From Felis catus (lineage: Eukaryota), in NCBI RefSeq assembly GCF_018350175.1, contig NC_058368.1, positions 84,074,001 to 84,138,000 of the forward strand: DNA of 64,000 nucleotides, given 5' to 3'. Below the pieces are notes generated by a model that worked only from the letters and a program-made list of their open reading frames with translations, was not told the origin of the DNA and made no database searches. Below are positions 18,627 through 60,061 of this stretch, piece by piece. A program made the position numbers and the translations under genes. Within the stretch, counting starts at the first letter, position 1. The number at the start of each line of letters is the position of its first letter.

Positions 18627-19519
18627 ATGATGAAACAAAAGAATTCCCCTCAGAAAAATGTCCAGGAAATAACAACAGCTAAAGAACTGATCAAAAACGA
18701 TTTAAACAATATAACAGAAAGTGAATTTAGAATAATAGTCATAAAATTAATCGCTGGGCTTGAAAACAGTATAAAAGACAGCAGAGAATCTCTTACTACA
18801 GAGATCAAGGGACTAAGGAACAGCCAGGAGCCAAAAAAAAGCTATCAACGAGCTGCAAAATAAAATGGAGACAACCACAGCTCAGATTGAAGAGGAAGAG
18901 GAGAGAATAGGTGAACTAGAAGATATAATTACAGAAAAAGAAGAAGCTGAGAAAAAGAGAGATAAAAAAAATCCAGGAGTATGAGGGGAAAATTAGAGAA
19001 CTAAGTGATGCACGAAAGAGAAATAATCTATGCATAATTGGTATTCCAGAGGAGGAAGAGAGAGGGAAAGGTGCTGAAGGGGTACTTGAAGAAATCATAG
19101 CTGAGAACTTCCCAGATCTGGGGAAGGAAAAAGGCATTGAAATCCAAGAGGCACAGAGAACTCCCTTCAGATGTAACTTGAATCGATCTTCTACACACCA
19201 TATCATAGTGAAACTGGCAAAATACAAGGATAAAGAGAACATTCCGAAAGCAGCTAGACATAAACATGCTCTAACATATAAATGGAGACCGATAAGACTC
19301 GTGACTGATCTCTCTACTGAAACTTGGCAGGCCAGAAAGGAATGGCAGGAAATCTTCAATGTGATGAACAGAAAAAATATGCAGCCGAGAATCCTCTATC
19401 CAGCAAGTCTGTCATTTAGAATCCAAGGAGAGATAAAGGTCTTCCCAAACAAACAAAAACTGAAGGAATTCCTCACCACTAAACCAGCCCTACAAGAGAT
19501 CTTAAGGGGGATCCTGTGA
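18627..19519 (+). pseudogene. L1 ORF1p (coiled coil-RRM-CTD), frameshifted
   Basis: MMKQKNSPQK... to ...ILYPASLSF...TTKPALQEILRGIL*; frame breaks in A-runs near 18835 and 18970. Confidence 0.9.
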
Positions 19520-19569
19520 GACAAAGTACCAGAGACATCGCTACAAGCATGAAACCTATGGACATCACA

Positions 19570-22500: not shown

Positions 22501-23378
22501 AGGAAAAGACCTCTCTGACCTCAGCCACAGCAATTGGCACATCCCCAAAGGCAAGGGAATTAAAAGCAAAAATGAACTACTAGGACCTCATGAAGGTAAA
22601 AAACTTCTGCACAGCAAAGGAAACAACCAACAAAACTAAAAGGCAACTAATGGAATGGGAAAACATATTTGCAAATGACATATTGAACAAAGGGCTAGTA
22701 TCCAAAATCTATAAAGAGCTCACCAAACTCCACACCCGAAAAACAAATAATCCAGTGAAGAAATGGGCAGAAAACACGAATAGACACTTCTCTAAAGAAG
22801 ACATCCAGATGGCCAACAGGCACATGAAAAGATGCTCAATGTCGCTCCTTATCAGGGAAATACAAATCAAAACCACACTCAGATATCACCTCACGCCAGT
22901 CAGAGTGGCCAAAATGAACAAATCAGGAGACTATTGATGCTGGTGAGGTTGTGGAGAAACGGGACCCCTCTTGCACTGTTGGTGGGAATGCAAATTGGTG
23001 CAGCCACTCTGGAAAACAGTGTGGAGGTTCCTCAGAAAATTGAAAATAGACCTACCCTATGACCCAGCAATAGCACTGCTAGGAATTTACCCAAGGGATA
23101 CAGGAGTACTGATGCATAGGGGCACTTGTACCCCAATGTTTATAGCAGCACTCTCAACAATAGCCAAATTACAGAAAGAGCCTAAATGTCCATCAAATGA
23201 TGAATGGATAAAGAAATTGTGGTTTATATACACAATGGAGTACTACGTGGCAATGAGAAAGAACAAAATATGGCCCTTTATAGCAATGTGGATGGAACTG
23301 GAGAGTGTGATGCTCAGTGAAATAAGCCATACAGAGAAAGACAGATACCATATGGTTTCACTCTTATGTGGATCCTGA
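19570..23378 (+). pseudogene. L1 ORF2p (APE endonuclease, RT, C-terminal domain), several frameshifts/stops
   Basis: [65 protein letters not shown] spread over different frames. Confidence 0.93.
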
Positions 23379-25325: not shown

Positions 25326-26838
25326 TTAAATGTTTGGTAGAATTCCTGTGGAAAGCCATCTGGTCCTGGACTCTTGATTCTTGGGAAATTTTTGATTACT
25401 GATTCAATTTCTTCACTGGCTATGGGTCTGCTCAAATTTTCTATTTCTTCCTGTTCCAGTTTTGGTAGTTTATATATTTGTAGGATTTGTCTAATTTCCT
25501 CCAGATTGCCCAACTTGTTGCCATATAATTGCATATACTATTCTCTTATTATTATTTTTATTTCTGTGGTGTTGGTTGTGATCTCTCCTCTTTCATTTTA
25601 TTTCCTTTATTTGGGTTCTTTTTGATAAATCTGGCTAGGGATTTATAAAGTTTGTTTTGTTTTTGTTTTTAATTTTTTTAATGATTATTTTTTGAGAGAT
25701 AGAGACAGAGTGTGAGTGGGGGAGGGGCAGAGAGAGAGGGAGACACAGAATCTGAAGCAGGCTTCAGGCTCTGAGCTGTCAGCACAGAGCCCAATGCGGG
25801 GCTCAAACTCACAGACCATGCATTCATGACCTAAACCAAAGTCGGACTTATAACCGACTATCCAGCCAGATGCCCCTATATATTTTGTTAATTCTTTAAA
25901 AGAACCAGCTCCTGGTTTCTTTGATCTGTTCTACTGTTGTTTGTTTGTTTGTTTGTTTGTTTGTGTTTTTTTTAATGATATCATTGATTTCTGCTCTAAT
26001 CTTTATTATTTCCCTTCTGCTGGTTTTGGGCTTGTTTAAGTGTAAAGTTAGGTTGTGTGTATGAGACCTTCCTTCTTTTTTTAGCAAGGCCTGGATTGTT
26101 ATATACTTCCCTCTTAAGACCACCTTTGCTGCATCCCAGAGGTTTGGGGCTGTTGTGTTTTATTTTCATTGTCTTCCATGTACTTTTTAATTTCTTGGTA
26201 AACCCATTCATTCTTTAGTAGGATGTTCTCAAATCTCCAAGTATTCACAGTCTTTATTTTTTTTTCCTTGTAGTTGACTTCAGGTTTCATAGTATTGTGG
26301 ACGGAAAATATGCAAGGTATGGTCTTGATTTTTTTGTACTTTGTTGAGGGCTGATTTGTGACTGAGTATGTGATCCATTCTGTAGATTGTTCCATGTGTA
26401 CTTGAGAAGAATGTGTATTCAGATGCCATAGGATGATATTTTCTGAATATATCTATTAGTCCACCTGTGTGTGACATTCAAAGCCATTACTTTCTTGATT
26501 TTCTACTTTCTGTCCATTGCTGTAAATGGGGTGTTGAATTCCCGTAATATAATGGTATTATTATCAATGTGTTTATGTTTGTGATTAATTGATTTATATA
26601 TTTGGGTATCACATGTTGGGGGCATAAATATTTATAATTGTTAAATCTTCTTGGTGGATAGACACCTTATTATATAATGCCATTCTTCCTTCTTGTTGCA
26701 GTCTTTATTTTAAAATCTAGTTTGTATGAAATAATTGTGGCTACTCCAACTTTCTTTGGATGTCCATTGGCTTGATAGATGGTTCTCCATCTCTTAATTT
26801 CAACCTACAGGTGTTTTAGGTCTAAAATAAGACTTTTT
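25326..26838 (-). mobile_element. LINE-1 ORF2 5' part (EN/linker), reverse orientation
   Basis: Minus-strand [37 protein letters not shown]. Confidence 0.88.
25650..25876 (-). mobile_element. Can-SINE
   Basis: Reverse SINE body with GA tract and poly-T. Confidence 0.9.
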
Positions 26839-28740
26839 GGAAATCAAAGACACAAAAAATGGAAAAAGATTCCACGCTCCTGGATAGGAAGAACAAGTAT
26901 TGTTAAGATGTCGATACTACCCAAAGCAATCTACATATTCAATGCAATCCTTATCAAAGTAACACCAGCATTCTTCACAGAGCTAGAAAAAATAATCCTA
27001 AAATTTTTATGGAACCAGAAAAGACCCCGAATAGCCAAAGCAATCTTGAAGAAGAAAACCAAAGCAGGAGGCATCACAATCCCAGACATCAAGCTATACT
27101 ACAAAGCTGTAATCATCAAGACAGAATGGTACTGGCACAAGAACAGACACTCAGATCAATGCAACAGAATAGAGAACACAGAAATGGACCCACAAACATA
27201 TGGCCAACTAATGTTTGACAAATCAGGAAAGAATATCCAATGGAATAAAGACAATCTCTTCAGCAAGTGGTGCTGGGAAAACTGGACAGTGACATGCAGA
27301 AGAAAGAACCTCGACCACTTTCTTACACCATACACAAAAATAAACTCAACATGGATGAAAGACCTCAGTGTAAGACAGGAAGCCATCAAAATCTTTGAGG
27401 AGAAAGCAGGCAAAAACTCTTTGATCTTGGTCACAGCAACTTCTTCCTCAACACATTTCCAGAGGCAAGGGAAACAAAACCAAAAATGAACCACTAGGAC
27501 CTCATAAAAATAAAAATCTTCTGCACAGTGAAGGAAACAATCAGCAAAACTAAAAGGCAACCAACAGAATGGGAGAAGATATTTGCAAGTGACATATCAG
27601 ATAAAGGGTTAGTATCCAAAATCTGTAAAGAACTTATTAAACTCAACACCCAAAAAAAAAATAATCCAGTGAAGAAATGGACCAATGACATAGAGACATT
27701 TCTCCAAGGAAGACATCCGGATGGCTAACTGACACATGAAAAAATGTTCAACATCACTTATCATCAGGGAAATACAAATCAAAACCCCAATGAGATATCA
27801 TCTCCCACCTGTCAGAATGGCTAACATTAACAACTCGGGAAACAACAGATGTTGGCAAGGATGTGGAGAAAGAGGATCTCTTTTGCACTGTTGGTGGGAA
27901 TGCAAGGTGGTGCAGCCACTCCAGAAAACAGTATGGATGTTCCACAAAAATTGAAAATAGAAGTACCCTACAACCCAGCAGTTGAACTACTAGATATTTA
28001 TCCAAGGGATACAGGTATGTTCTTTCAAAGGGGCACATGCACCCCAATGTTATTGTTGATAGCACTTCTATCAACAATAGCCAAAGTATGGAAAGAGCCC
28101 AAATGTCAGTCAATGGATGAATGGATAAAGAAGATTATATTTATATAAAAATAAATTTATATATATAAATATTTATATTATAATAAATTTATATATATTT
28201 ACATTATAATAAATTTATTTATAAATACATATAAATATAAATTATATATATTTATAAATAAATTTATATGTATATAAATATATATAGGGATATATAATGG
28301 AGTATATTATTTATATTTATATATATATATATATATATATATAATGGAGTATTACTCAGAAATCAAAAAGAATGAAATCTTGTCTTTTGCAACTACGTGG
28401 ATGGAACTAGAGGGTATTATGCTAAGAGAAATTAGTCAGTCAGAGAAAGAGAAATCTCATATGACTTCACTCATATGAGGACTTTAAGATACAGAAAAGA
28501 AGAACACAAGGGAAGGGAAGCAAAAATAATATAAAAGGAGGGAGGGGTACAATACATAAGAGACATTTAAATATGGAGAACAAACAGGGTTACTGGAGGG
28601 GTTGTGGGGGGGGTGGATTAAATAGGTAAAGAGAATTAAGGAATCTACCCCCGAAATCATTGTTGCACTATATGCTAACTAACTTGGATGTAATTACATA
28701 AATCAAAATATTTTTAAAAATCAATAAAAATAAAAAATAA
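26839..28740 (+). mobile_element. LINE-1 3' half, felid-type 3'UTR
   Basis: [13 protein letters not shown]...[16 protein letters not shown]...; 3'UTR and A tail. Confidence 0.92.
28140..28345. repeat. ~200-bp AT-rich low-complexity expansion inside L1
   Basis: ataaatttatatata-type units and (TA)n; duplicated atataatggagtat. Confidence 0.85.
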
Positions 28741-29160: not shown

Positions 29161-30159
29161 GAAAGCTTCTGCACTGCAAAGGAAACGATCAACAAAATGA
29201 AAAGGCAACCAATGGAATGGGAAAACATATTTGCAAATGACATATTGGACAAAGGGCTAGTATCCAAAATCTATAAAGAGCTCACCAAACTCCACACCCA
29301 AAAAACAAATAATCCAGTGAAGAAATGGACAGAAAACATGAATAGACACTTCTCTAATGAAGTCATCCAGATGGCCAACAGGCACATGAAAAGATGCTCA
29401 ATGTCGCTCTTCATCAGGGAAATACAAATCAAAACCACACTCAGATACCACCTTATGCCAGTCAGAGAGGCCAAAATGAACAAATCAGGAGACTATTGAT
29501 GCTGGAGAGGATGTGGAGAAACGGGAACCCTCTTTCACTGTTGGTGGGAATGCAAACTGGTGCAGCCGCTCTGGAAATCAGTGTGGAGGTTCCTAAAAAA
29601 AAATCAAAAATAGACCTACCCTATGATCCAGCAATAGCACTACTAGGAATTTACCCAAGGGATACAGGAGTACTGATGCATAGGGGCACTTGTACCCCAA
29701 TGTTTATAGCAGCACTCTCAACAATAGCCAAATTATGGAAAGAGCCTAAATGTCCATCAACTGATGAATGGATAAAGAAATTGTGGTTTGTATGCACAAT
29801 AGAATACTACTTGGCAATGAGAAAGAATGAAATATGGCCTTTTGTAGCAACATGGATGGAACTGGAGAGTGTTATGCTAAGTGAAATAAGTCATACAGAG
29901 AAAGACAGATACCATATGTTTTCACTCTTATGTGGATCCTGAGAAACTTAACAGAAGACCATGGGGGAGGGAAAGGAAAAAAAAAGTTAGGGAGGAAGTC
30001 AAACTATAAAAGACTCTTAAAAACTGAGAACAATCTGAGGGTTGATGGGGGGTGGGAGGGAGGGGAGGGAGGGTGATGGATATTGAGGAGGGGACTTGTT
30101 GGGATGAGCACTGGATGTTGTATGAAAACCAATTTGACAATAAATTTCATATAAAAAAA
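29161..30159 (+). mobile_element. 5'-truncated young felid LINE-1 (~1 kb) nested in ORF1 of the older L1
   Basis: Very similar to 22600-23600 of the full-length element; A tail at 30152-30159. Confidence 0.92.
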
Positions 30160-42154: not shown

Positions 42155-42531
42155 AAAAAAGTAAACCATAAAACTTGTGCTATGTGAGGGACAGTATGAC
42201 CAGTCTGACTCCTCACACAATGGAGTCGAGCCAATCAGGAATGGACAGCCCAGCACCTAGGGCTATCCAGCCAGTAAGGGTAGAACCTGAGAAAGAACAA
42301 GGGGTAAGGAGGTCTGACCATAACCTTATAAAGCAAGGACCTTTTACTATAGTCTTCAGGCCTTCACTTTTGAATGTCCCCTCTCTGTAAAGAGAGCTTT
42401 CCTACTATTCTTCCTTTCTGATCTTATACTCTAATAAACTTCTGCCTGCTGCTCATTCTGTGTCCACCTCTTCATTGTCAAAGTGGTGAGACTATGAACC
42501 CCAGGGGCTAGAGGTAAAAAATCCTGCAACA

Positions 42532-42885
42532 CTTTCATTCAATGGACACTCAGGTTGTTTTCATATGTTTGCTATTGTGAAAAACACTGCAATGAACACA
42601 GAGTGCAAGCATCTGTTCAAGATCCTAACTTCAATTCCTTTGCATAAATGCCTAAAAATGGTATTGCTGGGTCATAGGAGCTGGGAGTATGAATGGAGAG
42701 ATGGGGCACAAGATTTTGGTTATTCATGATTAATAAATTCTGGAGTTCTAATGTGTAACATGGTCACTATAGATAACAATACTGTTACCTGGCTAATTAG
42801 CTTGATTGTGGTGATTATTTCACAATGTACACATACATCAAATAATCAAGTTGTGCACCTTAAATAATATAATAAATTTTGAAAA
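42532..42885. mobile_element. Short L1MA-type fragment with inverted 5' part (42532-42676 minus, 42677-42885 plus)
   Basis: Reverse ORF2-end motifs (attgctgggtcata) abut the sense 3'UTR (aattctggagttctaatgtg). Confidence 0.65.
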
Positions 42886-45067
42886 GACTGTGGCTGGACA
42901 TAACAGCCAAAGGAGACTCTGGAATGCACCAAAACAGCCCCCTCTTAAGGTAGCTTGGGTTTCCACGTGCAGAGAACTGAATCATATGATTTTGTGGTAT
43001 ATTGTCTCATGATTCCTCCCAGACTAGAACAGCTCAAAGATACAGTCCACAACTCCCACAATATAAGCCCACTCTTGGAGATACTAGTAAGCGTTGTTGG
43101 ATAAAAAAAAAAAAAAAAAAGTAGGATCACATATGAAAAACAGAGATACCATGTGAAAAGCAACAAACAGACTTCCCTGATTTAGTTGTAGACTAATCTT
43201 AAACATAAGTCATGTACATGTAGGTTATTCAGTGGGATTATTCAGTGGATAGAGAGCAGCATGCATGAAGCCTGTTAATCACTGTTTTCTCACTTATAGT
43301 TTCTTTGATCTCGGGTTACATCATGATAATGGAGACTGAGGATAGCTGAGGCTGAAGATAGAAGAACCACAATAAAGTAGAAAGAAATATGAGGGAATAG
43401 AGAAAACGTACCAATGAAAAGCTGACTTCATGATCTTAGCTATGGTGATGCCCACAGCACTTTAAATATGAAGGGAAGTTTGACAATGAGGCAGACAAAA
43501 AGATCATGAACTTTTGGAAAATAAACTCATATTATTTCATTTCCCACTCAAAATTCATGGTGACATCAGTGTGCATAGATACAACAGTTGCTGGTTGTAC
43601 TTTTTCTGTGTCCTAGACAATAAATGAGAAACTATCTCTGAATAGTATAAAATATATTACAAAATACAGTCCACATCCAATATCTCATTACCTGATTACT
43701 TCATTTTTTCTTTAGTCAACTGTACATCAGAGAGTCAACTGTTTACTGCTGCCAGTTGAATATGCACAGATTACAAAGACTATTGTGCTCTCACAATTTA
43801 TAATTTTCATTAATACAACAAAGTAAAGTCAATATTATTATTCCATATTATTATCTCTACTGTTAGAACAATACAGCAGTAGTCAGAAAATCACAGAAAA
43901 TAGCCTGGCAAGGCCTATGCTTAATGAAGAAAAAAGATTCTTTATCTATGGTCCTTAGCTTACACACTCTCCAGGACTATTTGAGCACTTGGAACCTTGG
44001 TACAGGTAAGACCTCAATATATAAATGATAAAAAAAGAAACACAATAGTTGCTATTAGATCTCTTAGGATCAAAAGTAGAATGTTCCATAAGTAACTTCC
44101 ATCTTTAAGAGTCAGAAGACCAATAATGCATCAGGACATGATCAGTGGTAAATAAGTATGTTTTGAATGAGTAAAAGCAAGAATTAATAAATAAAAATTC
44201 CTCAGCAACCATATAGGTTTAGGTCTGGTTAAAAAATAAAGTTTTCAGATTTGGGAGCCTTTACTGAATATAAACTCAGTGCTCCTGAGCAAGATGCTTT
44301 TCTTTCGAAGTCTCAATTTCTATATCTGCAAAATGGAATAATAATATTCACCCTACTTTGTTGTTGTATTAATTGAAATTATAAATTCTGAGAGCACAAG
44401 TCTCTATAATCTGTGCATATTCAATTGATGTACAATCTGATGTACAATTGCCTAAAGAAAAAACTGAAGTAATCAGGGAATGAGATATTGTATGTGGACC
44501 ATATTTTGTAATATTTTTTATACTATTCAGAGATAGGTTCTCATTTATTGTTTAGAACACAGATATCTGATGATTTTTTTGAGAAATAAACCAATTTCAT
44601 TGTTTTCACTCAACTAAATCCAAAATATCAATTCATTAGGCTTGTGTAGACACAAACACCAAACAGTCATGTTGTGGGGGTCTGTGCATATTAACATGAC
44701 CTAAATTCCCACATATATATGTAGGGCTAGCAGAGTGCACATAGTACATGCTGGCCACATGGTAGACCATGGAGGTCACAGGCTTCACTATGACACAGAC
44801 TTGGGATCACACCCCAAGATGATCTTCAACACTAAGCTGGTTAACCTTCTGAACTTCTATTTTTTATGTGTAAAATAATGATTTAGTATCTCTTTTATTA
44901 TATAAGGATAAAATGAGATAATGTGTTAAGTGTTTAATGCAAAATGAGAGATAAAAAAATATTAGTTTGATTCCCACTCTGATTACTCTTAGAATTGAGG
45001 AATAAAAACCTATTGCCATGGGACACAAAATAACTATAACTAAAATCAACTTCAGTAGATATTTTGA

Positions 45068-45170
45068 AGGAAGGGAAGACAGTAGGGAAGGAGGGAGAAA
45101 GAAGGGAAGGAAGCAAGGAAGGAAGGGAGGAAGGAAGAGAGGAATGAAGGAAGGAAGGGAGGAAGAAAGG
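45068..45170. repeat. Polypurine (GGAA/GAAG)n tract
   Basis: ~100 nt of almost pure A/G. Confidence 0.9.
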
Positions 45171-46054
45171 ATGCTTCTCCACATCTCTAACTGCTGACTG
45201 GGGAGCAGTTTCCCCTAGACACAGAGGTGACGTTATGTTGATCTAACCAATGATATCTAAGGCCTCTCACAAATACCCTTTGTATATAAGGCTTTGAAAT
45301 AATAGTGTGGGGGCCCTGGAGCTCCTGAAGACATAGCATTATGGCTGAGGAAGTATTCATGTGTTTTTCCATAGAAGCCATCACTTGTCCAGAAACCAAG
45401 AACTTTACCTCAGACCTTGATACTTGTGCTTATTTGGAATTCTTTTCAGTCTATATCATATCTCCTTTTTGAAGCCATTTAATTGCCTACACAATTTCCT
45501 AAGAAATATTTAGGAGCCTGCAAGGAGAGAATCACTGGCTCTCTGTTTTGGGAAACATCCTGTCCCACTTCAGGACCTCAAGTGTCCACACAGGTAAGGA
45601 GCTTGTTCCCCTATTTGTAAAGAATATCAAAGAACGAAGAGCCACAATCTTCATCAATCAGCTATTTTAGAAGAAAACAAATCTTCTCTGCTAGGACATC
45701 CTTCCTGTAACCCATCTCACTTTATATTCATTAATCATAGGGACTTTGTTAAAGTGCTAGTGGGGGAGAACTAAGAAGTGTGGTTAATTGCCCTTCACCT
45801 TCTTTTCTCTTGATCGTATATAAGAAGTTTCTTTAGATGTTTCCCTCTAGATTTTATTTGAGCAGAGTGTATAAATTACTTGGATTATAGTTAAAGTAGG
45901 TCTACTAACTGGCATTTCTACAATTAATTAGTTGAGTTACGCTGGCATTTGGTGGCCAGTTGCACAGCACTGTTGAAAAGGTGGGATTTCAGAGAACTAT
46001 AAGAATGTTGTCAAAACAAAATGACATGGCACAACAAGTAGTGGCTTCTGGTCA

Positions 46055-46200
46055 GACTGAATTTGAACCCTTCAGTCTTGTATTTGTTATCTCTGAATCT
46101 TGGCTTTTTACTCTGTAAAATGAAGATAATAATACCTAGAACACATGCATTTAGCACACTGAACACAATCCTGGCACATAGTAAAATAGTGGGTAGAAAT
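46055..46200 (+). mobile_element. MIR fragment
   Basis: ctctgtaaaatgaagataataatacct...cctggcacatagtaa. Confidence 0.7.
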
Positions 46201-46902
46201 ATTAAAGACATTTGTATATCTAGATGAAATCCCAATGCTGTGTTAAGCGGTGGAACAAAGAGATTTTTACCTCTCCCCAACCACTCCTCCCTGGCCTGTT
46301 TTAACAGCTGACAAAACTGCTCGCAGGTCAGTCACTCTCATTGTCTCCCTTGCACTGAGTCCATATTTTAGCCATGAACATCAAACAAGTCTGCAGAACT
46401 TTGGAAGTTTCATCAATAAAATAGTCCAATAGCAAGAGACCACAGAGTGGCAGTTTTTCCTTCATAGAGTCTGAGCCACATCCAGGAGCCACCACCACCC
46501 CTGTGTTATAAAAGAAAAACACCCGCCAGCGCTTCTGTGTATATCTCGCAAATCTAAATACTCATCAGAAGAATTGACTGTGCCAAGTTTGTCCATTGTT
46601 TAGGAAACACCTGACCATGTCTGTTTGGCTCCTATAAAACCCAGCTTAAGATTGTTTTAATGCTCTAAATAAACGTGAATTTTCACTACATCAAAAGCTC
46701 CTCCTTTAATCAATTGTATGAGCTTTGGCTTTTCCCTTCACTTCTATCATGAGTCTTGTTCATTCACTTAATCATTCAACAACCTCATGCAGCTGCCACA
46801 ATATGCACTATTCATCTTACTGCTCCATGGGGTACAGAATAAAAATACCCTCAGGTAACATAAATTTAGGCCATAATTGCCTAGGAAGCCAACACAGTTA
46901 GG

Positions 46903-47118
46903 AGCAAACTTTTCCAATCTTGGCACTATGGACGTTTTGGGCTGGTTAATTTTCTGTTTGGGGGCTATCCTGTACACTATAGGATGTCTAGAAGTATTCC
47001 TGGCTTCTTCCCACTATATGCCATCCCTACTTCTGAGTTGTGACAACCAAAAATGTCTTCAGCCACTGACAAATATCCCATGGGTGAGGGGGAAATCACT
47101 CTGGTCGAGAACCTCTGT
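46903..47118 (+). mobile_element. MER20-like hAT-Charlie MITE
   Basis: cttggcactatggacgttttgggc...gttgtgacaaccaaaaatgtct...gagaacc. Confidence 0.75.
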
Positions 47119-47122
47119 GCTA

Positions 47123-47500
47123 CAGAATAGTGGTTCTCAAACTTGAGCAAACATTGGACCAATTGGAGGTCTTGTTAAAATAGAGTTCTGAGCCACCACC
47201 CAGAGTTTCTGATTTGATAGGTCTGTGTGAGGCCTGAGAATTTGCATTTTGAAGAGGTGGCTGATCCATTTTTCTCTAAGGAGACCTAGGGGTTAGCCAT
47301 TGGCATATTTGTTATTTCTCTGCCTGTGAAATCCTTATTCAATGGTTTCCAGATTTGTCTGATTAGAATCACCTGGAAACCTTTAAACCTTCCAAAGACC
47401 TAGCCATAACCCAGACCAATTAAATCACTAATTCAGAAGATGGGGCACATACATCAACATTTTTGAAGCTCCTTAGATAATTCCGATGTGCAGATTTGGG
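47123..47500. mobile_element. MER5-like hAT-Charlie fragments
   Basis: agtggttctcaaacttgagc, cagagtttctgatt, gaatttgcattt; attagaatcacctgg. Confidence 0.65.
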
Positions 47501-48082
47501 GACCAAATATAAATGCCATTACCTCATCTGTGATTTGAAGTTTTGGGGCTAAGTAGCTTATGGCTGCAGCTCACCCTAATTATTGTAACTGTGGCTAAGT
47601 CACTCTGTAGAAAACAGGACTCTAGGGGGAAATGAGAAGCTATTAGGGGTGCCTTGTTGAATGGAGATGGATTATGGCCTCAGATTTCACAGCTTTCTAT
47701 ATGGACTCCCCAAGGGTCTGTTTCAGTTTCTGAGCCACAAGCTCGAGCCCAGGAAGGACATGAAGGAGGAGAAAAGTCAATAAGAGACTGAGCCTTCTAA
47801 TGGAGACTGCACATTGGGACAATGTGAGGTGAGTGAGAGAAAGATGAGAGGTCGAGAGATAGGGAAGTAATTTAAAAACTTCACCCCCATTTATGCAGCC
47901 CCACAATTGACAATGGGCAATTCCACAACTTGTCTTCTGTCAAATATTCCAGCATTTAAAATCTCTGACAATCTGAAAGTTGTTTGATTTTTGTTTTTGT
48001 TTTTCAACACTATCTTTCTCCATAAATGAGATGTCTTAAATTGTAAAAATCATTGTGTGCTCTACTTTAAAAGAAAAAAAAG

Positions 48083-48238
48083 TGGAGGACTGTGTGGTTC
48101 AGTTGGTGAAGCATCTGACTTCAGCTCAGGTCATGATCTCACAGTTTGTAAGTTCGAGCCCCATGTTGGGCTCTGTGCTAACCACTCAGAGCCTGGAGCC
48201 TGTGTCACCCTCTCCCTCTCTACCTCTCCCCAGCTTGT

Positions 48239-48281
<43 letters not shown>

Positions 48282-48310
48282 AATAAATAAATAAACTTTT
48301 TTTTTAAAAA
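48083..48310 (+). mobile_element. Can-SINE
   Basis: SINE body, (CT)n, aaaataaataaataaa tail. Confidence 0.88.
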
Positions 48311-49089
48311 AGCAGTTAAACTGTAGGGGAGTAGAAAAAAAAACATACCAGTAAGAAAAGTCATAGGGAGAGAGAATGAAGACTAGGTCTAGATATACTC
48401 AACAACACAAAATGTGTTGTTTACATTGAAGATGTCTTTTTTGTTCATTCTAGTGGTTTTCCTATGCCTACTGGGTACTAGTTCACATCTAAGTAAGCTA
48501 GAGGTGGCAGGAATAGAAAAACATATCCTCTTCCTCCTGGGAACAGTCTAAAAGAAAAGGAACCATCCTAAAAATTTATTCTGAGACACACATGTGCACA
48601 CACATGCACTTTATACACTGCAATGCAGATGGGTATGTGTGTTAATATTGAAAAAACTGCCATGAAAAGAAAAATCAATAATGTCAGAACAAAGAATAAT
48701 TTCTAAGAATAATTGCTTATGCACAGCTCCACAAAGGGGGTGTTAAATTCAACTGGCCATACCAAAAGCAGCCATAGAGGTAATAGTGTGTATGTGGGCA
48801 ATCACACATCCGGGGCCATATGAACTGCCTTCTGTGGAGAAATATACTTTGTGGCCAGAGTCCTTAGTCACAAGTAATACCCAGTGTAGATGGAGAGATC
48901 CAGTGTGCATTGGAGGAGCTCTTCCCATCACAACAAACACAACCCCTTCCAAGGTTTATGAGAACAAAATCTGTGGAAGGGAAATTTCCAAGCGAGAGGC
49001 ATTAGGAGTTCTTTGCAGGTGGGTACAATTATTGATTATATGATTATTTTGCAGAATTAATTTGCTTAAGTGAGGAAGAGAACTGTTAT

Positions 49090-49445
49090 AACATTTACTG
49101 AATACCTATCATGCAAAAGGCATAACCTCAACATTTTTCTTATTCAATACTAATAACAACCCTGAGGAGTGAGTATCATGACTCCATTTTATATAGAGAG
49201 ATAAGCAGCAGTTCAGGGCTATAAAAGTGGTAAGAGTTGTGTTGTTAATAGCAGGTGACAAACAGCATATTCTTCCTGTCTGACTGTGCTGCAAGCACTC
49301 TACCTGTATTAACCACTATTACTCCCAACAGATCCAACAATTTTGAGACAAGGAACCTGAAGCTGAGTAGCCTAAGTTGCAGAGCTGGTGGAGCTGGGTC
49401 TTGAACCCAAGCAACCTGACTCCAGAGACTAGGTCCTTACTCACA
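49090..49445 (-). mobile_element. MIR fragments
   Basis: acatttactgaatacctatcatg, ataacaaccctgagga, cttgaacccaagcaacctgactccagag. Confidence 0.6.
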
Positions 49446-49603
49446 ATGGCTTAAACTTGGTGAAATCTGCAAAGAACATTCAGCTGACTCTGGGTCAAAT
49501 TATTACAGATTCTGAACATGTGAGTTCCTATTGTGAGTTCCTTTTGCTTTTGTGGAGAAGAAAGGAGGAAAAGAAAGGTAACTGATAATAGAGCTCTAGG
49601 GAA

Positions 49604-49820
49604 CAGGTCTTCAATCAGGGGTAATTTTGCCCAGCAGGGAATATTTGGCAGTCTGCAGACATTTTGTTTGTTTGTTTGTCACAACTGTAGGGAAAGCTAT
49701 TGGCATCTAATGGGAGAGTTCAGAGATGCTGCTAAATGTACTGCAGTTTACAGGGTAGCCTTTCATAGCAAAAAATTATCCACAGTAAAATGTCCATTAT
49801 GCCAGGCTTGAGAAAGCCTT
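49604..49820 (-). mobile_element. MER20-like MITE
   Basis: ggggtaattttgccc...gtcacaact...ttggcatcta...gatgctgctaaa...ttgagaaa. Confidence 0.72.
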
Positions 49821-50079
49821 CTCTAGAACAGTTAGGAGGATTTTGGATCTTGCCTGGAAGTTCAAAAATTTGTTGATCGAGGCTCATGCTGCTTATGGAT
49901 AAAATTGGGATGATGGCTTAGGTTTCCTCCACCTATAAAATCTCATGGTTATGAGACTTTTGAGATACCAAACAACACAAAGTTTGCCTACAAGGTGACA
50001 AAACAGGGAAAACATGAGAAAATTCTCTTCAGAGGAATGTTTTCAAATGCACCTGGAATCTTGCTTTATGTCAGGTTGT

Positions 50080-50570
50080 GGTTATTATTACCATTAAGAA
50101 GGTAATCCACAGTTTGCAAAAGGAGGGGGCATGCCACATCATACAGGGCCACAGGGGGAAGGAAGCATCAGGGTTGGTAAGGAGGCAGAATTAGTGAGGG
50201 GAAAACATAGGTAAAAGTTTTACTGTATTTTTTGTGGGAAGGACTGGGTCAGGCACAGCTGAGCACGTTTAGGATTGAGTAGTTTGAATAATTTTAGTTG
50301 GCTTTGAGCTATGAGGTTGTCACTAGTTGTCTGGAATCTGTCCCTGGGGTGATTACAGCAGAGGGATAGTGTCCCACACTGATAAAGAGAGGCAGATGGG
50401 GGGGGGGGTATGTACTCAGGATTTGTTGGTTTTAACACCAAAGACATTAATTCTTGTAAGTTGTTCACTATGTCTATGAATTAGCAAATCTGAGAGGGGC
50501 AGTCCCTTGCAGGGTCTGCAAGGCCTCAAGATGTCAGAGCATCATAAATATAGAAAACATATGCAGTATA
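50080..50570. mobile_element. Ancient LTR relic (MER/ERVL-type; subfamily uncertain)
   Basis: tttaggattg...gtttgaataattt...ctagttgtctgg...ccctggggtgatt motif recalled from eutherian LTRs. Confidence 0.5.
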
Positions 50571-51279
50571 TTATATCTTCACTAAAAGCTCATGTTGAAT
50601 GTTTAGGTTTAACACTGTTAACTTCTTGTGCTCAGCTCTGGAGACAAGCTTTGGGATGGGCCCTGCTATAGTCTGAACACATTTGATTCATTTCTAAGGA
50701 ATCTGTATGTGTGGCATGAGCATCCTGGAAACAGTGATGTTTAAGGCCCTATGCATAGCAAGAAATTCCAGGATGAGCACTGTGGAAAACCTTTTCCTGG
50801 CAAAGCTTACTGAGATCTAGCTGTGTGAGACCTAGGAAAAAACCTGGATTCTAAGCTCCTATATACTTTCAACCAAAAGTTATACTTTCATCCCAAAAGT
50901 TCCGGGCACTGGATCTCAGCTCAGATCACATATCAGACTAGCCTGGGAGCCTTAAGAAGCAGAGGTGCTCAGGGATCACTGCCAAGAATTAGATTCAGGG
51001 AAACCGTAAACAGATGACCGAAAGATTGCAAATCTCTGCTGGTGATTTTAAAGGATATGCAGATTAGGGCCACAGTCTATCACATCTCTGACATGTTGTA
51101 CCTCCAAAACACTTTGCTGCCCCTCCAGTCCTTTCCCAGTGACCCAATGGTATCAGCCAGTCCCAACATTCTCTCATATTCTCAACTCATTATAGAATTC
51201 TGGGAAGTTCATTTTATTTATCTTTCATTTAAGCCATTTGTTATCATACACAAGCCCAAAAATATAAGCTAGAATTCAA

Positions 51280-51740
51280 AACATTCCCTAGGATTTTGGG
51301 TAGTGGAACCAAGAAAGGCAACAGGCCATGAAGTCTCAGGGATTTTGAGTGGTGGGAAGTTCTCTGCCAGCTGTCTTACCATGGAATGTGTGGTCTGAGT
51401 TTGTCCCTCATCCACATCTTCTAAAACTGCCTTTGACTTCTTTCTCATCATAGCTTAATTTGACATTCACAGAGATTGACTTTACTTGAAGAAAAGTAAT
51501 TTGATAAGGGAGAATTTTAAGGGCCTCTGATACTTCCAAAAGCAACTATTGAAACTGGTTTACCTACTCCTATTATGAAGTTCACAGATTTATAATGAGT
51601 CCCATTCTCTATCAAACAAGTTTATAAACTTCTTCACATGAGGTAACAGTACGGGGGATGAGGACAACGGACTTCCAGAAATCTACTTAAGAGCAATTCC
51701 TACATCTGAGCACAAAGGGCATGTTTAGGACTCCTGGGAG
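51280..51740 (+). promoter_or_regulatory. Candidate OR promoter: O/E (EBF)-like and homeodomain sites
   Basis: TTCCCTAGGA 51284, TCTCAGGGA 51334-51342, TAATGA 51593-51598, CTCCTGGGAG 51731-51740 around the candidate first exon. Confidence 0.35.
51638..51642 (+). CDS. Candidate coding portion (ATG AG) of an upstream exon of the OR gene
   Basis: cacATGAG|GTAACA donor at 51643. The phase-2 junction with acceptor 52818 gives ATG AGC GAG GCT TGG in frame (5+967=972 nt, 323 aa + stop). Inference only, no transcript data. Confidence 0.55.
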
Positions 51741-52033
51741 TCAAGGCAACAAGGGAAAGATGGCATGGCACAGCTTTGCTAGCTGATAAAATGCACCTGT
51801 CAGCCATAGCAAAAGATCTCACCTATTTCTAAGAAAAATTCGTCACATGGATCCTCATGTAAATAAGAATTTTGAAATATATAATTCATATATTTGTAGA
51901 TCTAGTTCTTAGTTTACACATGAAAGTAAATGTTTTATTTAAATTTTTTTTTCTTGTGTGCATATTTACTCATTTGTGTATTATTAGAAATATTGCTAAG
52001 TATGTATATTTCACAAAACATGGGCGTTCTAAT

Positions 52034-52085
52034 TTTTTTTCATGTTTATTTATTTTTTATAGAGAGCAGGGGATGGGGCAAACAG

Positions 52086-52121
<36 letters not shown>

Positions 52122-52247
52122 CCCAAGCAGGCTCCACACTGTCAGTACAGAGCCCAATACCAAGCTTTAAGCCACAAACCATGAGATCATGACCTGAGCC
52201 AAGTTCAAGAGTTAGATGTTTAACTGACTGAGCCACCCAGATGCCCC
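52034..52247 (-). mobile_element. Can-SINE in the predicted OR intron
   Basis: TSD aaaacatgg(a)g(c/t)gttctaat on both sides; (GA)n. Confidence 0.93.
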
Positions 52248-52374
52248 AAAACATGGAGTGTTCTAATGTACTGTGGTTCTTTTTCTGGCTTTTTACAATG
52301 GAAACTTTGATCATCAGTTTTTAGTCTTTCCTCTCTTTTAACACATACATTTTACATTACAAGTTCTCCTCTCC

Positions 52375-52578
52375 TGAGCCTGGGTGACTCAGTCAGTTAA
52401 ACATCTGACTTTTGCTCATATCATGACACACAGTTCCATGGGTTCAAGCCCTGCTCAGGCTCTCTGCTGACAGCTCAGAACCTGGAGCCTACTTTGGATT
52501 CTGTGTCTCCCTCTCTCTTTGCCCCTCCCCTGCTTGCATTCTGTCTCTCTCAAAAATAAATAAACACTAAAAAAAATG
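52375..52578 (+). mobile_element. Can-SINE in the predicted OR intron
   Basis: gcctgggtgactcagtcagttaa head, CT tract, A tail. Confidence 0.9.
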
Positions 52579-52818
52579 GGAAAAAAGTCTCATCTAAGCA
52601 CTGCTTTGGCTGCATGACATGTTTTTTTATAGTACTTTTTCATCATGAAATAATGCCAAACCTACAAAAACTTTAAAAAATATTAGGAAGAACTCCCACA
52701 GCCCCTCTGTCAGCTCACTTAATTGTCGCCGTCTGCTGTTTTCATCCATCACTCCACTCTCCGACTCAGAGTGGATACTTTATAGCCCATGATGAGTTGG
52801 TTTACTTCTTCCCCACAG

Positions 52819-53785
52819 CGAGGCTTGGCAAGAGGCAGGCAGAGGGCCCTGGAACCAGTCCTCCACCGGCGGCTTTGTCCTCACAAGCCTTTTTAATGAG
52901 AGCCCAATGCACCTGTTCCTCTTCAGCATGGTTGTGGTAGTCTACACACTTGCCATGGCTGGCAACACTGCCATGGTTTTCCTGATCTGGGCAGATGCCC
53001 GGCTCCACACACCCATGTATTTCCTCCTCAGCCAGCTGTCTTTTCTGGACATCTTCTTCACCTCAGTCACCATCCCCAAGATGATAGCAGGCTTCCTCTT
53101 TGGCTGGACTAGCATCTCATTTGTGGGCTGTGGAGCACAAATGTTTTTCTTCATGTTCTTTGGGGCCACAGAGTGCCTCCTGCTGGCCCTCATGGCCTAT
53201 GACCGTTACGTGGCCATCTGCAACCCTCTGCGCTACCCATCACTCATGAGTCATCAGACCTGTCTGCTCATGGTGGCTGCCTCCTGGCTGGGAGGGTCTC
53301 TCAATGCCTCCATCCAGACTGCACTGACCCTGCAGTTCCCCTATTGTGGCTCAAGAAAGATTGCACACTTTTTCTGCGAGGTGCCCTCACTGCTGAGGCT
53401 GGTTTGTGCTGACACAGCCTCCTACGAGCACGTTCTTTTTGTGACAGGTGTGGTAGTCCTTCTGCTGCCCATTGCCTTTATCACTATGTCCTATGCCCTC
53501 ATCTTGGCAGCAGTGCTTGGGATGCACTCTGTGGAGGGGCGTCGGAAGGCCCTAGCCACCTGCTCCTCCCACTTAACAGTTGTCAACCTCTTCTATGGAC
53601 CCCTCGTCTATACCTATATGTTACCTGCATCCTACCACTCTCCTGGCCAGGATGATGTAGTGTCCATCTTCTATACAGTCCTCACACCCATGCTGAATCC
53701 TGTCATCTACAGTCTCAGGAACAAGGAAGTGACAGGAGCAATGAAGAATGTCATAGGGAAGTGTGGGATGGGTAAGATTGCTTAA
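52819..53785 (+). CDS. Olfactory receptor, class II, family 2 (OR2Z/OR2V/OR2T-like); main coding exon. First in-frame ATG 52907 gives 292 aa; predicted spliced form 323 aa
   Basis: Uninterrupted ORF with OR motifs GN (TM1), LHTPMYFLLSQLS, MAYDRYVAICNPLRY, HFFCEVP, KALATCSSHL, PMLNPVIYSLRNKEV. The frame stays open upstream of 52907 (EAWQEAGRGPWNQSSTGGFVLTSLFNESP, with N-Q-S sequon) back to the acceptor ttacttcttccccacAG ending 52818. Confidence 0.96.
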
Positions 53786-53959: not shown

Positions 53960-55250
53960 TGTCAGTATCCACTTTTCACTCCCCTGCCTCACCTCAACAA
54001 ACTCCAGTCTGGTTTCTGTTCCAGCCATCCCTTGTCCAAAGGGCAATATTTCATCGCCTCTGTCACTAAATGTCCAAAAGCATCTCTTCTCCCCAAAGGG
54101 CCCCCAAAGCCCTTCTTCTCTGGCTATTTCCCCAAATTTCTCCTTCATCCCTGTCCTCCAGCCACACTGGCTGCCTTATTGATCAGAATTCCTAAGCACA
54201 ATCCCAGTTTGTGGTCCTTCAACACAGAGTTCCTGATGCCTGGGTGCTTTCCTCCACACTTTTGCATGTTTGCATGAGGAACTTCTCAAATATGATTATA
54301 TCAGAGATGCCTGTACTGGCCACACTGTCCAAGATGGTATCCCTATCCCATTCCACCATCTCTTTCTAACTTAATTTGTGTATTCAATGTTTCTTTTTCC
54401 CTTTAGAATGTGCAGTTCAGGGGAGTTGAGGTTTTGATTTGTAGTGTTGTACCCTCATCTCCCCGAAGACTGCCTGGCACACAGTCCATCAATAAACATT
54501 TGCTGAATAAATGGATAAACCCAATGAACATTTCTTACCTAATCCCAAAAGTGTTGGCACTGTTGCTAGTTCCTCCTTGAAAATCTTTTTTCCTTTGGTA
54601 GTGATACCACATTTCTGTTTTTGTTTTTTTTCCCTACTTTGGCCCATGCCTTCCCATTAAGTTACGAATGACTTAAAACATGGTGATAGACCCTTCTCTT
54701 CTCAGTCCACAGTCTCTCAGGTCACTCTCATTCATGGCGATGGTTTCAGTTACCACCTAACACCTAAGTCTGTCATACATATTATAGGCCAGCCAGATGT
54801 CTCCTCCAAGCTCAATATCCACACTGGATGTTCCAGAGGCACCTCAAATTCATCATATCAACAAAAAAATCATGATATCTCCTCTAGGGATGGTAACTGA
54901 GTGAATGCTCCACAAGGTCAGCAGGACTCTCACCGCCCATGCCTAATCCCTCACCAAATCCTGTCCATTTGACCATCACTGCTTACCTTTGGATGAGATG
55001 CAATCCTCGGTGTTGCAACTACCAACACCAGAGTCAAAAGATACAGTCAATCTTGACTGGGATGATGCAGGAACTTCCAAACAGGTCTCCTTGCTCTCTT
55101 TCTCACCCACCCCACATATACAACTTGTTTTCCAAGAGAGCCAAAAGAATCTCTAAACACAAATCTATTCACATGCCACCAACTCCAATCCTTAAGTTCC
55201 CCTTAAATACCTTTAGAAATTCTTATTCCTTTTACATGTATCACCATCTA
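53960..55250 (+). mobile_element. LINE-2 fragments, including a 3' end at ~54150-54520
   Basis: ccagccacactggc, tagaatgtg...tgcctggcacacag...caataaacatttgctgaataaatg L2 terminus; AATAAA at 54491 could serve as the OR poly(A) signal. Confidence 0.7.
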
Positions 55251-56261: not shown

Positions 56262-59200
56262 ATTTTTATTTTTTGTCTTTTTTTTAAATATGAAATTTAT
56301 TGTCAAATTGGTTTCCATACAACACCCAGTGCTCATCCCAACAGGTGCCCTCCTCAATGCCCAACACCCACTTTCTCCTCCCTCCCACACCCTCCATCAA
56401 CCGTCAGTTTATTTTCTGTTTTTAAGAGTCTCTTATGGTTTGCCTCCCTCCCTCTCTAACTTTTTTTCCGCTTCCCCTTCCCCATGGTCTTCTGTTAAGT
56501 TCCTCAACATCCACATAAGAGTGAAAACATTTAGTATGTCTTTCTCTGTATGACTTATTTCACTTAGGATAACACTCTCGAGTTCCATACACGTTGCTAC
56601 AAAAGGTCATCTTTCATTCTTTCTCATTGACAAGTAGTATTCCATTATATATATAAACCACAACTTCTTTATCCATTCATCAAATGATGGACATTAAGGC
56701 TCTTTCCATAATTTGGCTATTGTTGAAAGTGCTGCTATAAACATTGGGGTACAAGTGCCCCTATGCATCAGCACTCCTGTATCCCTTGGGTAAATTCCTA
56801 GCAGTGCTATTGCTGGGTCATAGGGTAGATCTATTTTCAATTTTCTGAGGAACCTCCACACTGATTTCCAAAGCGGCTGCACCAGTTTGCATTCCCACCA
56901 ACAGTGCAAGAGGGTTCCCATTTCTCCACATCCTCTCCAGCACCTATACTCTCCTAATTTGTTCATTTTAGCTACTCTGACTGGCATGAGGTAGTATCTG
57001 AGTGTGGTTTTGATTTGTATTTCCCTGATGAGGACTGATGTTGAGCATCTTTTCAGGCACCTGTTGGCATTCTGGATATCTTCTTTACAGAAGTGTCTAT
57101 TCATGTCTTCTGCCCATTTCTTCACTGGATTATTTGTTTTTCAGGTGTGGAGTTTGGTGAGTTCTTTCTAGATTTTGGATACTAGCCCTTTGTCTGATAT
57201 GTATTTGCAAGTACCTTTTCCCCTTCCATCAGTGGCCTTTTAGTTTTGTTGATTGTTTCCTTTGCAGTGCAGAAGCTTTTTATCTTTATGAGGTCCCAAT
57301 AGTTCCTTTTTGCTTTTAATTCCCTTGCCTTTGGAGATGTGTCAAGTAAGAAATTACTGTGGCTGAGGTCAGAGAGGTTTTTTTCCTGCTTTCTCCTCTA
57401 CAGTTTTGATGGTTTCCTGTCTCACATTCAGCTCCTTCATCCATTTTGAATTTATTTTTGTGAATGGTGTAAGAAAGTGGTCTAGTTTCATCCTTCTGTC
57501 CAGTTCTCTCAACACCATTTGTTAAAGAGACTGTCTTTTTTCCATTGGATACTCTTTACTGCCTTGTCAAAGATTAGTTAGCCATACTTTTGTGGGTCCA
57601 ATTCTGGACTCTGTATTCTATTCCCTTGGTCTATGTGTCTGTTTTTGTGCCAATACCATACTGTCTTAATGATTACAGCTTTGTAGTAGAGGCTAAGTCT
57701 GGGATTGTGATACCTCCTGCTTTGGTCTTCTTCTTCAATATTACTTTGGCTGTTCGGGGTCTTTTGTGGTGCCATACAAATTTTAGGATTGCTTGTTCTA
57801 GCTTCAAGAGTGCTGGTGCAATTTTGATTGGGATTGCATTGAATGTGTAGATTGCTTTGGGTAGTATTGACATTTTTGCAAGATTTATTCTTCCAATCCA
57901 TGAGCATGGAATGTTTTTCCATTTCTTTATATCGTCTTAAATTTCCTTCCTAAGCTTTCTATAGTTTTCAGCATACAAATCTTTTACATCTTTGGTTAGG
58001 TTTATTATTGGCATTTTATAACTTTTGGTGCAATTGTGAATAGGATCAGTTCTTTCTGTTGTTTCATTATTAGTGTATAAGAATGCAACTTATTTCTGTA
58101 CATTGATTTTGTATCCTGCAACTTTGCTGAATTCATGTATCAGTTCTAGCAGACTTTTGGTGGAGTCTATCGGGTTTTCCATGTATAATACCATGTAATC
58201 TGCAAAAAGTGAAAGCTTTACTTCATCTTTGCCAATTTTGACGCATTTGATTTCCTTTTGTTGTCTGATTGCTGATGCTACAACTTCCAACACTATGTTA
58301 AACAACATCAGTGAGAGTGGACATCGCTGTCATGTTCCTGATCTCAGAGGGAAAGCTCTCAGTTTTTCCCCATTGAGGATGATATCAGCTGTGGGCTTTT
58401 TATAAATGGCTTTTATGATGTTTAAGTGTGTTCCCTCTATCCCGACTTTCTCAAGGGTTTTTATTAAGAAAGGATGCTGAATTTTGTCAAACGCTTTTTC
58501 TGCACCAATTGACAGGATCATATGGTTCTTCTTTTCCTTTATTAATGTTATGTATCACATTGATGGATTTGCAAATGTTGAACCAGCCCTGCAGCCCAGG
58601 AATGACTCCCACTTGATCATAGTGTATAATTCTTTTTATATGCTGTTGAATTCGATTTGCTAGTATCTTATTGAGAATTTTTGCATCCATATTCATCAGG
58701 GATAATTCGCCTGTAGTTCTCTTTTTTTACTGGGTCTCTGTCTGGTTTAGGAATCAAAGTAATACTGGCTTCATAGAATGAGTCTGGAAGTTTTTCTTCC
58801 CTTTCTATTTTTTGGAACAGCTTGAGAAAGATAGGTATTATCTCTGCTTTAAATGTCTGGTAGGATTCCCCAGGGAAGCTATCTGGTCCCGGAGTCTTAT
58901 TTCTTGGGAGATTTTTTATAACTGATTCAATTTCCTCGCTGGTTATGGGTCTGTTCAAGTTTTTTATTTCTTCCTGTTTGAGTGTTGGAAGTGTGTGGGT
59001 GTTTAGGAATTTGTCCATTTCTTCCAGGTTGTCCAATTTGTTGGCATATAATTTTTCATAGTATTCCCTGATAATTCTTTGTATCTCTGAGGGATTGGTT
59101 GTAATGATTCCATTTTCATTCATGATTTTATGTGTTTGGGTCATCTCCCTTTTCTTTTTGAGAAGCCTGGCTAGAGGTTTATCAATTTTGTTTATTTTTT

Positions 59201-60061
59201 CAAAAAACCAACTCTTGGTTTCATTGATCTGTTCTACAGTTTTTTAAAATTCTATATTGTTTATTTCTGCTCTGATCTTTATTATTTCTCTTCTTCTGCT
59301 GGGTTTGGGGTGTCTTTACTCTTCTGCTTCTATTTCCTTTAGTTGTGCTGTTAGATTTTGTATTTGGGATTTTTCTTGTTTCTTGAGATGACCTGGATTT
59401 CAATGTATTTTCCTCTCAGGACTGCCTTTGCTGCATCCCACAGCATTTGGATTGTTATATTTTCATGTTCATTTGTTTCCATATATATATATATATATAT
59501 ATATGTATATTTAAATTTCTTGTCTAATTGCCTGATTGACCCACTCATTCTTTAATAGGGTGTTGTTTAACCTCCATGCTTTTGGAGGTTTTCCAGACTT
59601 TTTCCTGTGGTTTATTTCAAGTTTCATAGCATTGTGGTCTGAAAGTGTGCATGATATGATCTTAATACTTTTGTCTTTATTGAGGGCTGTTTTGCGACCC
59701 AGTATGTGATCTATCTTGGAGAATGTTCCATGTGCACTCTGGAAGAAAGTATATTCTGTTGCTTTGGGATGCAGAGTTCTAAATATATCTGTCAAGTCCA
59801 TCTGATCCAATGTATCACTCAGGACCCTTGTTTCTTTATTGATCCTTATAGATTGATCTATATATTGATCCTTTATTGATCTTTATAGATTGTCTAGATG
59901 ATCTATCCATTGTTGTAAGTGGGGTATTAAAGTCCCTGCAATTACCACATTCTTATCCATAAGGTTGCTTATGTTTGTAATTAATTGTTTTATATATTTG
60001 GGGGCTCCCATATTTGGCACATAGACATTTATAATTGTTAGCTTTTCCTGATGGATAGACC
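56262..60061 (-). mobile_element. 5'-truncated felid LINE-1 (~3.8 kb), ORF2 disrupted
   Basis: Reverse strand closely matches ~19870-23600 of the full-length element; poly-T tail at 56262-56285. Confidence 0.94.

Follow-up and report, generated by a model that had tools for sequence, protein, structure and literature searches.

A felid OR2Z2 olfactory receptor gene that probably takes its start codon from a nine-codon upstream exon

A minority class of olfactory receptor (OR) genes, in which the start codon is carried by an upstream exon, has already been described (PMC7055050). In its available text, the survey by Barnes et al. 2020 counts 13 human and 41 mouse split OR loci, with more than 90% of the introns located in the N-terminus or TM1, and applies a filter that removed genes with a downstream in-frame ATG giving more than 300 aa (PMC7055050). 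ORs usually carry a single N-terminal sequon, which the accessible part of another study treats as a mark of functional receptors, N-glycosylation being considered important for surface delivery (PMC4626375).

The DNA considered here, hereafter the window, is a 64-kb stretch of the cat genome. Where does the receptor encoded in it begin? The original prediction held that the gene is an intact, spliced OR whose start codon resides in a separate upstream exon at 51638-51642. The first part of this proposal stands: the locus very probably encodes a split and, as far as its sequence can tell, most likely intact class II receptor of the OR2Z2 type. The start exon, however, is placed at 47800-47828 rather than at 51638. 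The features discussed below are collected in Table 1.

Table 1. Features of the OR2Z2 locus in window positions (a slash marks an exon-intron boundary).
Feature	Position	Strand	Remarks
Possible non-coding leader exon	45489..45599	+	ends CAG/GTAAGG; donor 95.6, the best in 42800-52750
O/E (EBF)-like site	47708..47716	+	92 nt before ATG 47800; 24 such sites in 64 kb
Upstream exon, predicted coding part	47800..47828	+	ATG, nine codons METAHWDNV, then AG of the junction codon
Predicted splice donor GTGAGT (GAG/GTGAGT), phase 2	47829..47834	+	sequence; score 93.5
Inferred GT-AG intron, 4,990 nt	47829..52818	+	donor/acceptor phase match, open joined frame
ATG and donor-like site of the original prediction	51638..51648	+	present; unsupported as start exon
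Polypyrimidine tract and CAG acceptor	52800..52818	+	14/18 pyrimidines; 20 nt before without AG
Main OR coding exon	52819..53785	+	last junction-codon base, 321 codons, stop TAA
N-Q-S, canonical N-terminal glycosylation sequon	52853..52861	+	N22 in the 331-aa form; coincides in alignment with the sequon of consOR2
First in-exon ATG, about the start of TM1	52907..52909	+	292-aa form in public records begins here
Two AATAAA hexamers, candidate polyadenylation signals	54491..54511 (54491, 54506)	+	about 0.7 kb past the stop

The product of the main coding exon is an OR by Pfam (7tm_4, E 6.3e-55, 187 bits against a cut-off of 27) and aligns without gaps to residues 12-315 of consOR2, the family 2 consensus (E 1.5e-122). 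No second OR was found in the 64-kb window, either among ORFs of at least 150 aa or by tblastn. A puma protein matches the 292-aa core at every residue, those of lynx, snow leopard and clouded leopard differ from the core at one place each, and rat Olr1413 is 86% identical over 292 aa. In the portion of Olender et al. 2020 available to us, Or2z2/OR2Z2 corresponds to rat Olr1413, mouse Olfr30 (MOR281-1) and dog and cow OR2Z2, the name OR2Z2 being confined to these four rows (PMC7160942). A tree of 43 rows chosen from the retrieved proteins places the window gene in a 31-row clade with support of 100/99, apart from OR2Z1, 2T and 2V. Because branching within this clade is poorly resolved and the marsupials are misplaced, the tree was not used for polarity; the dog OR2Z2 peptide was compared with the window by eye only. 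On the strength of identity and tree, we assign the gene to the OR2Z2 orthogroup, as its representative in felids.

The receptor frame is open from 52796 to 53785, with a TGA just upstream at 52793, and its first in-exon ATG, at 52907, yields 292 aa up to the stop at 53783-53785. This in-exon frame lacks a canonical sequon and remains below 300 aa; in the consOR2 alignment its Met falls close to where TM1 begins, about 18 residues past the canonical sequon. N-Q-S and the FVLTSLF motif are indeed found upstream of this ATG, as predicted, and we likewise confirm the TGA at 52793, the AG ending at 52818, and the ATGs at 52907 and 51638, the latter followed by AG/GTAACA. Between the junction and ATG 52907 lie 29 codons; in all 16 therian orthologues compared, from fox to wombat, 15-25 of these 29 encode the identical residue. 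That this ATG-less stretch is conserved argues for coding constraint, and hence for the need of an upstream start. Taken together with the acceptor, the conserved N-terminal stretch is, as a sequence pattern, beyond chance.

Could translation start at TM1 instead, at 52907 or 52928 (292 or 285 aa), the upstream exons being non-coding, or could the gene be a fresh start-loss pseudogene? Public record P0128 is identical to the in-exon ORF and is entered at 292 aa. Dog and cow OR2Z2 are also 292 aa long, and in the available part of the catalogue their peptides begin at TM1 (876 nt), at the same residue as window ATG 52907, and are flagged as non-pseudogenes (PMC7160942). ATG 52928, moreover, has the best start context among the candidates (A at -3, G at +4; product 285 aa). 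Yet a TM1 start would dispense with the whole extracellular N-terminus and its sequon, and would skip 29 codons that are conserved from felids to marsupials. As to a fresh pseudogene, the ATG-less state is common to several orders, which speaks against a recent loss of the start. We therefore regard this pair of readings as highly improbable, and P0128 as an instance of what the original prediction had anticipated, namely a split OR recorded in truncated form. Start-codon context cannot separate 47800, 51638 and 52907, since all three have C at -3. Felid records of this one gene span 292 to 400 aa.

As originally proposed, a 51642/52819 junction is in the correct phase and leaves a frame of 323 aa open, and the acceptor at 52818 with its phase-2 junction is borne out, fitting donor 47829 as well as the orthologue read-throughs described below. 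But how unusual is an ATG followed by a donor in the required phase? Of the 494 GT sites between 42800 and 52750, 113 are accompanied, within 40 codons, by an in-frame ATG in that phase. Four of the 113, the proposed site included, reach its score of 77.6 (donor scores derive from an approximate matrix). A combination of this type is thus expected by chance, and choosing by eye whichever ATG-donor lies closest is not a reliable guide. Within 10 kb, the proposed donor is equalled or beaten by three others that have an ATG and the right phase. A plateau pika model (P0015, 323 aa) does have the same Met-only geometry. This geometry accounts for 1 of 102 orthologue models, however, compared to 30 of 102 in which Met precedes the junction residue by exactly nine residues (Met + 8), and the other pika species carries the nine-residue exon (P0194); tblastn, for its part, cannot detect a Met-only exon. 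Around 51638 there is no good acceptor-defined open cassette, the nearby AGs having at most 13/18 pyrimidines. A start at ATG 51638 on an exon ending at 51642 thus appears extremely unlikely for the receptor, though it could serve a minor isoform alongside the main one.

The start exon that we favour encodes METAHWDNV at 47800-47826, with AG/GTGAGT next. A peptide taken from fox and ferret models is encoded exactly at 47797-47823, where its score of 54 is the maximum attainable and the next best in six frames is 25; following this match, the window continues with Val and AG/GTGAGT. An in-frame stop at 47761-47763 precedes ATG 47800, which is consequently the only usable ATG in its frame. To guard against circularity with carnivores, a 9-mer profile was built from 11 distinct non-carnivore peptides. 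Scored with this profile, 47800 comes first (26.1, the next reaching 16.4) among the 1,697 open 9-mers of both strands that start with Met, and also ranks first among the 46 plus-strand Met-started 9-mers that have GT at +29 (26.1 versus 5.5). The donor at 47829, scoring 93.5 with the same approximate matrix, is the best of the 113 ATG-bearing, phase-compatible donors and third of the 494 GT sites in 42800-52750. Joining 47828 to 52819 generates an open receptor frame of 331 aa, within the 300-350 aa range, with N-x-S/T sequons at residues 8, 22 and 36. The orthologue models, the stronger donor (93.5 versus 77.6) and the conserved nine-residue peptide all favour 47800-47828 over 51638-51642, so that a different donor, an outcome which the original prediction had named as counting against it, is indicated at the level of comparative models, as distinct from transcripts.

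Gene models that read through the end of the intron, from whale-like, rabbit, tree shrew, lemur, tarsier and snub-nosed monkey records, translate it as P/L-H/N-S. Such read-through in several orders fits a conserved acceptor like that of the window. Upstream of ATG 47800, the frame in which gene models align to the window varies among canids, mustelids and monkeys, the behaviour expected of a leader, whereas the distance from ATG to donor is constant at 29 nt. The start context of ATG 47800 is middling (C at -3, G at +4), and two other ATGs lie less than 100 nt upstream, 47701 (in frame with a stop) and 47760 (out of frame). The O/E (EBF)-like site at 47708, which we noted post hoc, is a weak hint of a promoter or a conserved leader. 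Homeodomain promoter sites were considered as a signal and dismissed, with 198 in 64 kb being too frequent to mean anything. Separately, a TTTTTAATGA motif is present inside the coding exon (52890-52899, plus strand), one of 6 such in the window; we take TTTTTAATGA to resemble the extended homeodomain site of OR promoters. Further upstream, the translation of 45489-45599 is 69% identical to an exon in a gene model of the sea otter, and there is a faint resemblance to a squirrel model as well. This segment may tentatively be a non-coding leader exon. A further strong donor is found at 44006.

How widespread is the nine-residue exon? With the exon-2 product as query, 8,000 candidates were scored and the best 120 of them listed; the orthologue-level set comprises 102 predicted proteins that match the core at 78% identity or better across 200 aa or more. 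The cross-species counts rest on predicted proteins, and predictions can be copied between species. The Met + 8 form occurs in 30 of the 102 models, from 24 named species in five placental orders (Carnivora, Artiodactyla with whales, Lagomorpha, squirrels, tree shrew); as several are paralogues or close kin, these are not 30 independent cases. E2 is conserved in 28 of them, W6 in 25 and V9 in 29. At their junction, S, R and G are found in 22, 7 and 1 models, respectively, all of which fit an AG or GG half codon at this constant position of the predicted proteins. In rhino, grey squirrel and one ground-squirrel paralogue the Met is missing and another in-frame Met is present on the same exon. 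Among the other 72 models, which lack the Met + 8 form, 31 show assorted different N-termini and 26 are fragments or begin no earlier than TM1; intron read-through accounts for 6, an in-exon Met for 4, absence of the sequon region for 4 and the Met-only form for 1. None of the five felid models among the 15 of 66 cluster members listed uses the nine-residue exon. Old World monkey models (P0008, P0020, P0185, P0204-P0206) translate the homologous exon (window 47712-47837) in another frame, and a mangabey model shifts frame just ahead of the junction, where there may be a small indel. In the cluster of P0001, dog UPAR/Ly6-domain proteins group with canid OR2Z2 models; this probably comes from a fused gene model, and may hint at a neighbouring Ly6/uPAR gene outside the window. 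A look for orthologous DNA among metagenome contigs gave 155 pattern matches, of which 0 were confirmed. Of at least 24 sequencing runs, 6 are RNA or possibly RNA; their word shares of 0.22-0.76 tracked contig sizes, as genomic DNA would.

Some models would start the receptor from yet another upstream exon. The puma model (400 aa) has exons near window positions 48909-49033 and 50072-50173 on the plus strand, and the lynx model (364 aa) one at 42220-42303, also on the plus strand, joined to an acceptor at 52769. The puma, sea lion and lynx models all map to the window, puma and sea lion (352 aa) share 50072-50173, and acceptor 52769 equals 52818 in pyrimidine content and is accompanied by a branch-point-like motif; it is in a different phase from 52818. 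These three models are mutually inconsistent, however. Their N-termini of 60-108 residues bring the protein outside or to the edge of the usual total of 300-350 aa, and none of their exons recurs across orders, unlike the nine-residue exon. A start in any of them accordingly appears extremely unlikely, and the exon at 47800-47828 remains our preferred start.

The intron predicted downstream of this exon holds three SINE-like repeats (48067-48309, 52030-52254 and 52378-52578), which resemble carnivore SINEs and show CT/GA runs together with A-rich tails; other parts of the window contain 14-16 matches to them. One SINE-like repeat sits between the donor of the original prediction and the acceptor. 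Long ORFs at 18900-22650, 26780-27500, 29360-29950 and 58670-59250 look to us like pieces of LINE-1 ORF1/ORF2, and much of the window appears to be repeat of this type.

In the model that we propose, transcription would cover the upstream exon that holds ATG 47800, and splicing from 47828 to 52819 would remove the 4,990-nt intron, AG and C together forming a Ser codon. The predicted 331-aa product would have a 39-residue extracellular N-terminus with the canonical sequon at N22. The Ser created by splicing would complete an extra sequon, N8-V-S10, and a third, N36, would lie near the membrane. Such a receptor would act as an ordinary odorant GPCR in olfactory neurons. Use of the junction in RNA, protein production, glycosylation and function are all inferred from sequence. 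The extra sequon is found in 21 of 32 models with the nine-residue layout. According to the accessible part of the glycosylation study, added sequons did not rescue trafficking of M71 (PMC4626375), which makes a benefit of the second sequon conjectural.

Mouse and rat Or2z2 differ from the window gene in having an in-exon Met five residues before W-N-x-S, giving a single-exon frame of 315 aa, where the window has Ala; vole shares this in-exon Met. We found no Met at the muroid position in the squirrels, lagomorphs, primates, tree shrew, laurasiatherians and marsupials examined. By parsimony, the in-exon Met is therefore a gain in muroid rodents, which suggests that the single-exon state of mouse and rat is derived. 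The original prediction would have taken an in-exon ATG in orthologues as a sign of lineage-specific start loss; it occurs in mouse, rat and vole only, and looks like a gain there, not a felid loss. Opossum, guinea pig and polar bear models with an in-exon Met (P0025, P0029, P0028) were also considered as real in-exon starts and rejected; those of opossum and guinea pig are not counted, as RefSeq has Ala at this position in its opossum model and Leu in its guinea pig model. In guinea pig and tarsier, a Met is located after the sequon.

Could the two-exon layout of OR2Z2 be as old as the therians? Wallaby and bilby models share the Met + 8 geometry. Null 9-mers score as high as the wallaby peptide in 2 of 1,696 cases and as high as the bilby peptide in 41 of 1,696, so that the latter was set aside as weak proof of homology and the wallaby peptide is the better of the two. 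The nine-residue form is absent from the possum, Gracilinanus, wombat, koala, opossum and Dromiciops models. A scenario that we consider possible but somewhat doubtful is that the layout is therian-old and arose through capture of a start in a leader exon after loss of the ancestral in-exon ATG, not through insertion of an intron into the frame, and that a new in-exon ATG partly undid it in mice, rats and voles. If this were true, mouse Olfr30 might have a hidden longer isoform, the splice-made second sequon might matter in trafficking, and lists based on mouse and human would systematically miss such genes, split ORs being commoner in other mammals than counted. Mouse Olfr30 is reported to respond to TMT and, at high concentration, to ACT, the latter presumably acetophenone. 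In the text available to us, Olfr30 was picked as a high-affinity receptor of the fox odour TMT (PMC5504302) and was the most enriched OR at 100% ACT (PMC7189481), and one of its transcripts is reported to extend 6.3 kb upstream of the in-exon ATG (PMC7055050).

For gene catalogues, our results imply a correction of gene models: dog and cow OR2Z2 and several felid records would lack 39 N-terminal residues and a glycosylation site. Ligand-screen constructs made from the short records would probably fail, given that they miss this N-terminus and its glycosylation site, and repertoire counts with a length cut-off may label the gene truncated. Since many automated records already include the correct exon, the result is better described as an amendment than as a discovery, and it opens no new mechanism. 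It does extend the split ORs beyond human and mouse, with a case that would have escaped the published filter.

How, then, does the locus compare with the split ORs already described? Olfr30/Or2z2 is absent from the whole table of Supplementary File 3 (PMC7055050), probably on account of the in-exon ATG of mouse and rat (315 codons). We found no earlier report of a split OR2Z2/Olfr30 in a search in which Olfr30 papers were judged by title and subscription literature was thinly covered. The Barnes cases have RNA-seq support, whereas the felid split is predicted here from sequence and gene models. In the window gene, no in-exon ATG gives more than 300 aa (292 aa), and the start Met holds a conserved relative position in 30 of 102 predicted models, two properties on which the Barnes assignments also rely. 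Mouse Olfr324/Or2ab1, located in the same chromosome 11 cluster as Olfr30, has a split isoform that, like the proposed model, measures 331 aa with an intron at residue 9. Orthology to this gene was considered and rejected, its peptide being unlike by eye and its rat partner being Olr1431, not Olr1413; the match in length and intron is a coincidence. Intron position 9 recurs in the unrelated split ORs Olfr1174-1177/OR5D3P, Olfr324, Olfr869-873/Olfr18/OR7E24 and OR10R2 (PMC7055050 Supplementary File 3) and again in the model of the window gene, reflecting either chance or a preferred N-terminal length. With the split ORs, as far as the available text of that survey describes them, the felid gene as modelled here shares an upstream start exon, an intron in the extracellular N-terminus, an intact length of 300-350 aa that is reached only after splicing, and truncated older records; its 4,990-nt intron falls inside the mouse range of 550-22,628 nt, and nine upstream codons are the commonest layout in the Barnes table too (PMC7055050).
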